From the NCBI RefSeq assembly GCF_044324785.1, contig NZ_CP172127.1: a DNA stretch of 64,000 bases, one strand, 5' to 3'. Under the pieces are notes generated by a model, which was given only the letters and a program-made list of their open reading frames with translations, did not search any database and was not told where the DNA came from. The translations under genes and the position numbers were made by a program. Within the stretch, counting starts at the first letter, position 1. Each line of letters opens with the position of its first letter. The stretch is from Escherichia coli (lineage in GTDB: Bacteria; Pseudomonadota; Gammaproteobacteria; Enterobacterales; Enterobacteriaceae). Of the stretch, positions 22,830-23,522 are shown piece after piece.

Positions 22830-23522
22830 ATGCCACATCACATTGTTATTGTTGAAGATGAGCCGGTTACCCAGGCGCGATTACAATCCTACTTCACCCA
22901 GGAGGGGTATACCGTTTCCGTTACGGCGAGCGGTGCCGGGCTACGGGAAATTATGCAGAATCAGCCGGTGGATTTAATTCTGCTGGATATCAATTTGCCC
23001 GATGAAAATGGCCTGATGTTAACCCGCGCCCTGCGAGAACGCTCAACGGTGGGGATTATTCTGGTTACGGGACGCAGCGATCGGATTGACCGTATTGTTG
23101 GGCTGGAAATGGGCGCAGACGATTACGTCACCAAACCGCTGGAACTGCGCGAACTGGTGGTACGAGTGAAAAATCTGCTCTGGCGAATCGACCTCGCGCG
23201 GCAGGCGCAACCGCACACTCAGGACAACTGCTATCGCTTTGCCGGTTATTGCCTGAATGTGTCGCGCCATACGCTGGAACGGGATGGCGAGCCGATTAAA
23301 CTGACCCGCGCAGAGTATGAAATGTTGGTGGCATTTGTGACGAATCCGGGCGAAATTCTTAGCCGTGAACGTCTGCTGCGTATGCTCTCTGCGCGTCGGG
23401 TGGAAAACCCTGACCTGCGCACCGTCGATGTGTTAATTCGTCGTTTACGTCATAAACTCAGCGCGGATTTACTGGTGACGCAACATGGCGAAGGTTATTT
23501 CTTAGCCGCTGATGTGTGCTGA
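22830..23522 (+). CDS. torR: Response regulator TorR (OmpR family), 230 aa
   Basis: Receiver domain with conserved Asp (ILLDINLPD) plus a winged-helix C-terminus. Confidence 0.95.
   Translation: MPHHIVIVEDEPVTQARLQSYFTQEGYTVSVTASGAGLREIMQNQPVDLILLDINLPDENGLMLTRALRERSTVGIILVTGRSDRIDRIVGLEMGADDYVTKPLELRELVVRVKNLLWRIDLARQAQPHTQDNCYRFAGYCLNVSRHTLERDGEPIKLTRAEYEMLVAFVTNPGEILSRERLLRMLSARRVENPDLRTVDVLIRRLRHKLSADLLVTQHGEGYFLAADVC

Follow-up and report, generated by a model that had tools for sequence, protein, structure and literature searches.

In prokaryotic gene pairs that overlap tail to tail, two genes on opposite strands share short 3′ coding ends, and the length of the shared segment is set by the first in-frame stop met antisense to the neighbour. 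In the E. coli reference genome, 75 convergent overlapping pairs have been counted (PMC4161906), and such overlaps have been described as arising when a gene loses its stop codon and is lengthened at its 3′ end (PMC2716372). At the level of transcripts, Conway et al. 2014 give complementary 3′ ends for 276 of 370 convergent operons, with a mean overlap of 286 nt. Excludons, the adjacent opposite-strand genes with overlapping transcripts, have mutually exclusive expression and RNase III processing as their hallmark. They were recently catalogued with ExcludonFinder (Nucleic Acids Res 2025; PMC12288877), which takes each CDS as the starting point and traces the ends of its transcript outward. 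In 58 RNA-seq samples of MG1655, that study found 165 convergent excludons that recur in at least half of the samples, with sxy-yccS, torT-torR, and yccX-tusE among them. It also reports that excludon pairs, taken as a class, are co-expressed less in single cells and show more synteny than other adjacent genes, and states that p19 validation of dsRNA was not feasible for the convergent ones. Two further systems are relevant here, namely bidirectional intrinsic terminators accompanied by polymerase collisions (bioRxiv 10.1101/2022.10.23.513370), which need a stem-loop between the gene boundaries, and antisense read-through terminated by Rho, mapped by DirectRNA-seq with and without bicyclomycin (PMC7815308).

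The two pairs described here, torR/torT and yccS/sxy, are found in a stretch of E. coli DNA of 64,000 nucleotides (contig NZ_CP172127.1), the whole of which is called the window below. Each consists of two real opposite-strand genes that share their 3′ coding ends, and neither differs in any essential way from other tail-to-tail pairs of prokaryotes. The local detail is that torT ends within the codons for a conserved Gly-Tyr of a regulator of the OmpR/PhoB type, which gives 28 bp in several genera. With the excludons these pairs have in common their place in the published catalogue, and what they are shown to share with that class is the overlap of transcripts; the overlap in them lies in coding sequence, beyond the 3′ UTRs alone. 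With the bidirectional intrinsic terminators they share a convergent arrangement with little or no spacer and the possibility of head-on encounters, whereas neither junction has a hairpin or a U-tract. The likeness to Rho-terminated antisense read-through lies in a bicyclomycin-sensitive region in antisense torT and in C-rich, G-poor RNA past the stops of torR and yccS, although for yccS it is a likeness of composition. Both overlaps are already known, from standard E. coli annotation and from the published catalogue of convergent overlaps. We consider that torR/torT and yccS/sxy are probably ordinary, passive tail-to-tail overlaps resulting from tight packing, with Rho clearing the read-through, rather than a selected regulatory device.

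The shared 3′ segments

The elements of the torR/torT junction, with the genes as placed by the ORF listing and by the RefSeq annotations of strain N3 and K-12 and the shared segment as established from the raw sequence, the cross-species alignment, and frame arithmetic, are as follows.

22830..23522, plus strand: torR, 230 aa, OmpR/PhoB-type response regulator of the TMAO reductase system
23495..24523, minus strand: torT, 342 aa, periplasmic TMAO-binding protein
23495..23522, both strands: shared 3′ segment, 28 bp
23495..23497, minus strand: torT stop TAA, complement of the third base of the TorR Gly222 codon GGT and of TA of the Tyr223 codon
23520..23522, plus strand: torR stop TGA, within the TorT Tyr334 and Gln335 codons

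The plus strand of the 28 bp encodes TorR Tyr223–Cys230 and the stop, and the minus strand encodes TorT Gln335–Lys342 and the stop, together with one base of the Tyr334 codon. Throughout this segment the two reading frames share their third codon positions, with wobble facing wobble. The N-terminal domain of TorR matches the solved TorR structure (1zgz), and the full-length protein aligns with BaeR (4b09) through its last residue, 230; the overlap covers the conserved C-terminal wing of the DNA-binding domain. TorT is homologous to the solved TorT of Vibrio parahaemolyticus (3o1h) only in residues 46–332, ending with ...RPVY, so that the overlap falls within a ten-residue tail located beyond the fold. 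With the wobble positions shared in this way, the conserved residues of TorR largely determine the sequence of the TorT tail, TSAAKK. The overlap is thus asymmetric, with the TorR side constrained and the TorT side free.

The second junction consists of the following elements.

47844..50006, plus strand: yccS, 720 aa from the first ATG, putative inner-membrane transporter of the FUSC/YccS family
49969..50598, minus strand: sxy (tfoX), 209 aa, coactivator of the CRP-S regulon
49969..50006, both strands: shared 3′ segment, 38 bp, holding for each gene its final 11 codons and its stop

Here the phase is different, with codon position 3 of sxy opposite position 2 of yccS. The start of yccS is annotated at the first ATG, 47844 (720 aa), in N3, and 9 nt downstream, at window position 47853 (717 aa), in K-12. 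In relatives, the length of YccS is 708–720 aa, and this ambiguity of the start has no effect on the 3′ overlap.

The first-pass annotation had given 28 bp for torR/torT and 38 bp, at 49969..50006, for yccS/sxy, and both values are exact to the base in the ORF listing, the raw sequence, and RefSeq. In K-12 MG1655, torT occupies 1056261..1057289 and torR 1057262..1057954, with the same 28-bp overlap, while sxy occupies 1021138..1021767 and yccS 1021730..1023883, with the same 38-bp overlap. E. coli N3 (NZ_CP031609.1), the best match of the window, which is 99.9% identical to it in the tor segment and 100% in the yccS-sxy segment, carries the same coordinates of both pairs in its RefSeq annotation. 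The chance that a wrong stop or a frameshift, introduced by annotation or sequencing, creates only apparent overlaps is so slight as to be negligible. K-12 and the window do not differ in either overlap sequence, more than 5,400 complete genomes of E. coli contain the tor and yccS-sxy regions at 95% identity or more, the stop codons are unambiguous, and homologues support both ends of each pair. The artefact was rejected on the identity with K-12 and on the recurrence of the protein C termini in other species.

Overlap lengths by chance and among genera

The statistics of gene pairs were computed on the sequence of N3 and its annotation, N3 being 99.5% identical to the window over 14020..63987. 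Among the 13 pairs of convergent genes here, an overlap is present in four (torR/torT by 28, cspH/appA by 13, tusE/yccX by 4, and yccS/sxy by 38 bp), and the other nine are separated by spacers of 31–92 bp. A local enrichment of overlaps was considered, but the binomial tail for 4 of 13 is only 0.03–0.08, a post hoc value obtained under assumed, unsourced genome-wide rates of 10–13%. The lengths expected by chance were derived from a simulation in which an incoming ORF enters the annotated genes of the stretch, 64 in number, from their 3′ ends in three phases, defined by the overlap length modulo 3.

Phase 1 (torR/torT): median 28 nt, interquartile range 4–78 nt, observed 28 nt
Phase 2 (yccS/sxy): median 65 nt, interquartile range 38–112 nt, observed 38 nt, about the lower quartile
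Phase 0: median 84 nt, interquartile range 33–188 nt, none observed

Both overlap lengths are those of chance read-in once convergent genes abut without a spacer. In a passive origin, convergent genes would be packed without a spacer, and each ORF would run to the first in-frame stop that it meets inside its neighbour.

A scan based on TorT, with one genome per species, gave 18 loci, and torT and torR are arranged tail to tail in all of them. The lengths of the overlap in these genomes are listed below.

28 bp: four Escherichia, four Citrobacter, three Providencia, and Enterobacter ludwigii
−7 nt (a gap): three Edwardsiella
4 bp: Edwardsiella hoshinae
21 and 54 bp: two Serratia

The C terminus of TorR, ending with (D/E)V, is kept in 18 of 18 genomes, whereas conservation of the TorT tail is limited to the genomes with a shared frame. 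The stop codon of torT is TAA where the glycine codon of torR is GGT, and TAG where it is GGC, with both forms present in relatives. In 13 sequences from four genera the overlap is exactly 28 bp, and all of them have GGT or GGC at this glycine, preserving the torT stop. Such uniformity could reflect selection and is a point against a passive origin. GGT and GGC are, on the other hand, common glycine codons, and since they are common and the sequences are related, their retention in all 13 is at most weak evidence of selection. The length is constant because the segment encoding the TorR wing is without insertions or deletions and the glycine codon is GGY. Within the group with 28 bp, synonymous divergence in the eight torR codons of the overlap is 0.43, compared with a median of 0.49 for 8-codon windows along the gene, which places the overlap at the 22nd percentile, and on this basis extra selection at the nucleotide level was rejected.

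Under passive packing, the torR/torT overlap would thus span the conserved wing of TorR and a dispensable tail of TorT beyond the periplasmic-binding fold, and the torT stop, built from the conserved Gly-Tyr codons of TorR, would freeze the overlap at 28 bp wherever the frame is kept. The point is also one of method: the conservation of an overlap length can be explained by the protein constraint on one partner, here through the location of the torT stop in the Gly-Tyr codons of TorR and through the shared wobble positions. Since such a constraint can fix the length, conservation of an overlap should not be taken as evidence of regulation.

Several side observations concern the distribution of torT. 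The matches listed in the TorT protein search were from E. coli and Shigella only, at 97% identity or more, and torT of Salmonella was not recovered with its exact peptide patterns. The Providencia proteins (TorT 70–72% and TorR 85–90% identical) are nearer to those of E. coli than is the TorT of Edwardsiella or Serratia, and Providencia has the 28-bp overlap and the TSAAKK tail in common with Escherichia and Citrobacter. This likeness is a hint that the regulatory genes of the tor system may have been transferred horizontally.

For yccS/sxy, the loci of Sxy homologues were compared in eight further taxa and E. coli, nine in all. Synteny is retained in 9 of 9 taxa, and the genes overlap in every one of them, by 4 to 47 bp.

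E. coli and E. fergusonii: 38 bp each
Salmonella enterica: 14 bp
Citrobacter rodentium: 47 bp; another Citrobacter: 32 bp
Enterobacter cancerogenus: 44 bp
Intestinirhabdus: 35 bp; Leclercia: 20 bp; Yokenella: 4 bp

The tails cannot be aligned between genera, for Sxy after ...ELAEW..SL and for YccS after ...LPEIGRLQRQI. In E. coli and E. fergusonii the overlap is of equal length, and most of the tail residues differ. This variation is stop-codon drift in two unconstrained tails, with the conserved cores about 45 nt apart. A point against a passive origin is that sxy and yccS overlap in every genus sampled, which may indicate a pressure against a spacer.

A related proposal is that the overlaps are kept by selection for compaction or linkage, either because they remove a spacer or because they make it harder for deletion or recombination to separate the two genes. 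The fact that torT and torR belong to one signalling system and are adjacent in 18 of 18 genomes would agree with this, as would the synteny of sxy and yccS in all nine taxa. However, no functional connection between sxy and yccS is known, the DNA saved amounts to 28–38 bp in a 4.8-Mb genome, spacers of 31–92 bp persist between other convergent genes nearby in this stretch, and Edwardsiella maintains the same synteny of torT and torR without an overlap of the CDSs. Selection of this kind is, in our opinion, very unlikely.

Transcription across the two junctions

The first-pass annotation had also claimed that these arrangements force overlapping antisense transcripts, a claim that holds both by logic and by the published excludome and Rho data. 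Each stop codon is located inside the partner gene, and any complete mRNA therefore contains the shared 28 or 38 nt. Because the stops lie within the shared segment, complementary 3′ ends of the mRNAs are unavoidable whenever both genes are transcribed. Transcripts that end before the overlap on both strands, proposed at that stage as contrary evidence, would be without stop codons, so that this refutation is inapplicable to functional mRNAs. By the positions of the stops and by the published data, both pairs are adjacent opposite-strand genes with overlapping transcripts.

A terminator scan found no terminator-like hairpin with a U-tract at either junction, no inverted repeats of at least 8 nt are present at either overlap, and minimum free energy folds at both junctions contain only weak local hairpins without U-tracts. 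A bidirectional intrinsic terminator, which would have a G+C-rich stem-loop between an A-tract and a U-tract where the two genes meet, was thus rejected. The yccS/sxy overlap does contain a small hairpin (CAGGA-AAC-TCCTG, with TTTC after it; 49992..50004, plus strand); it is below the criteria of the terminator scan, and other genera do not retain it. A search of the whole window against Rfam gave no match at the overlaps, and a known structured RNA family was rejected there, the matches being elsewhere only. The sole Rfam matches in the window are the cspA thermoregulator at 29057..29479 (minus strand), a match of 157 bits in the 5′ region of cspG, and tRNA-Ser (serT) at 40024..40108 (plus strand).

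Three regions on the plus strand are pertinent to termination by Rho.

23601..23950, plus strand: C-rich, G-poor stretch in antisense torT, C/G of 1.5–2.07 in 78-nt windows
23954 (K-12 1056830, minus strand), plus strand: published Rho termination region antisense to torT, 432 nt past the torR stop
50085..50320, plus strand: C-rich, G-poor stretch in antisense sxy, 3′ of the yccS stop, C/G up to 2.91

In the sense of torR, a C/G ratio of 1.5–2.07 extends from +79 to approximately +350 past the stop, the window-wide median being 1.05 and the 95th percentile 1.80. This C-rich composition downstream of torR fits the loading of Rho. The published region, transferred from K-12 1056830 to window position 23954 by ungapped alignment, has reads of 39/14 in untreated cells and 52/81 with bicyclomycin, with a Rho score of 4.34 and p = 2.2e-5 (PMC7815308, Supplementary file 2). 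A bicyclomycin-sensitive 3′ region with C-rich RNA upstream, the combination that marks a Rho-dependent terminator, was found for torR only. The available tables of PMC7815308 contain no published Rho region for yccS, sxy, or torT, and the stretch at 50085..50320 is, by composition only, a candidate region for Rho loading. Among the curated Term-seq 3′ ends of the same study, covering three growth conditions, none is assigned to torR, torT, sxy, or yccS, which fits low expression of these four genes.

For a passive overlap of this kind, the sequence of events would be as follows. In the lack of an intrinsic terminator, transcription would enter the neighbouring gene and produce untranslated antisense RNA, and Rho would end this read-through, as documented for torR and as suggested by composition for yccS. 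We infer that expression is affected little, if at all, whether polymerases collide or RNase III cleaves the duplex.

The same read-through could be interpreted as part of a functional excludon, in which 3′ complementarity and transcription into the partner gene make the paired genes antagonistic by head-on collision of polymerases and cleavage by RNase III. Such antagonism would set the ratio of TorT to TorR, or would hold sxy low while yccFS is transcribed. The inclusion of both pairs in the core excludome (PMC12288877) agrees with this interpretation, but pairs with overlapping CDSs are called excludons almost by construction, because ExcludonFinder extends transcripts outward from the CDS. 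The lower single-cell co-expression and higher synteny reported in the same paper also favour it, and they count against a passive origin; these are properties of the class, and the dsRNA of its convergent members is the part that the authors found not feasible to validate. The read-through from torR is documented for about 430 nt into antisense torT (PMC7815308), but the read counts at that region are low, 39 and 14, and the absence of curated Term-seq 3′ ends in three conditions fits weak expression, with which collisions would be rare. Genera other than Escherichia also have these genes tail to tail, yet the overlap lengths vary, there is a gap in Edwardsiella, and the torR overlap has no excess of nucleotide conservation. 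On balance, a functional excludon is an improbable explanation of either pair.

We can speculate further that the 28 bp of torR/torT in particular are a selected device, in which read-through from torR and torT forms a duplex or leads to polymerase collisions, balancing the periplasmic sensor partner against the response regulator and giving the Tor two-component circuit a further link at the post-transcriptional level. This possibility is a distant one. The torR gene is negatively autoregulated. No locus-specific expression test of torR/torT or yccS/sxy, and no evidence for their coupling, was found in the literature. Coupled expression is without support, because the lengths are at the level of chance and vary between genera, the overlap shows no extra constraint, and expression is apparently low. 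If coupling were true, it would mean a small post-transcriptional layer on Tor signalling or on the control of the competence regulator Sxy.

Other overlaps in the window and strain differences

The remaining two overlapping convergent pairs are as follows.

41068..41397, plus strand: tusE
41394..41672, minus strand: yccX
41394..41397: shared segment of tusE/yccX, 4 bp
29609..29821, plus strand: cspH
29809..31119, minus strand: appA
29809..29821: shared segment of cspH/appA, 13 bp

The tusE/yccX pair, absent from the first-pass annotation, is the fourth convergent overlap in the window, and in it both genes take their stop codons from the palindrome TTAA. Term-seq 3′ ends antisense to yccX are located at K-12 1030252 and 1030253 (PMC7815308), corresponding approximately to window positions 41483–41484, some 86 nt beyond the stop codon of tusE.

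The cspH/appA pair, listed earlier as a third case, was confirmed as an overlap of 13 bp at 29809..29821. In K-12, cspH and appA are about 9 kb apart, with etk-etp-gfcEDCBA and IS1D between them. Because this intervening block is missing in the strain of the window, both the cspH/appA junction and its overlap are strain-specific. In N3, appA is annotated 12 nt longer than in K-12 (1311 compared with 1299 nt).

The window and N3 are collinear over 14020..63987, and the segment 1476..12709 of the window aligns to N3 positions that are 1475 nt lower. The interval between yccJ and agp is different in the two sequences, and N3 has three hypothetical genes annotated there.
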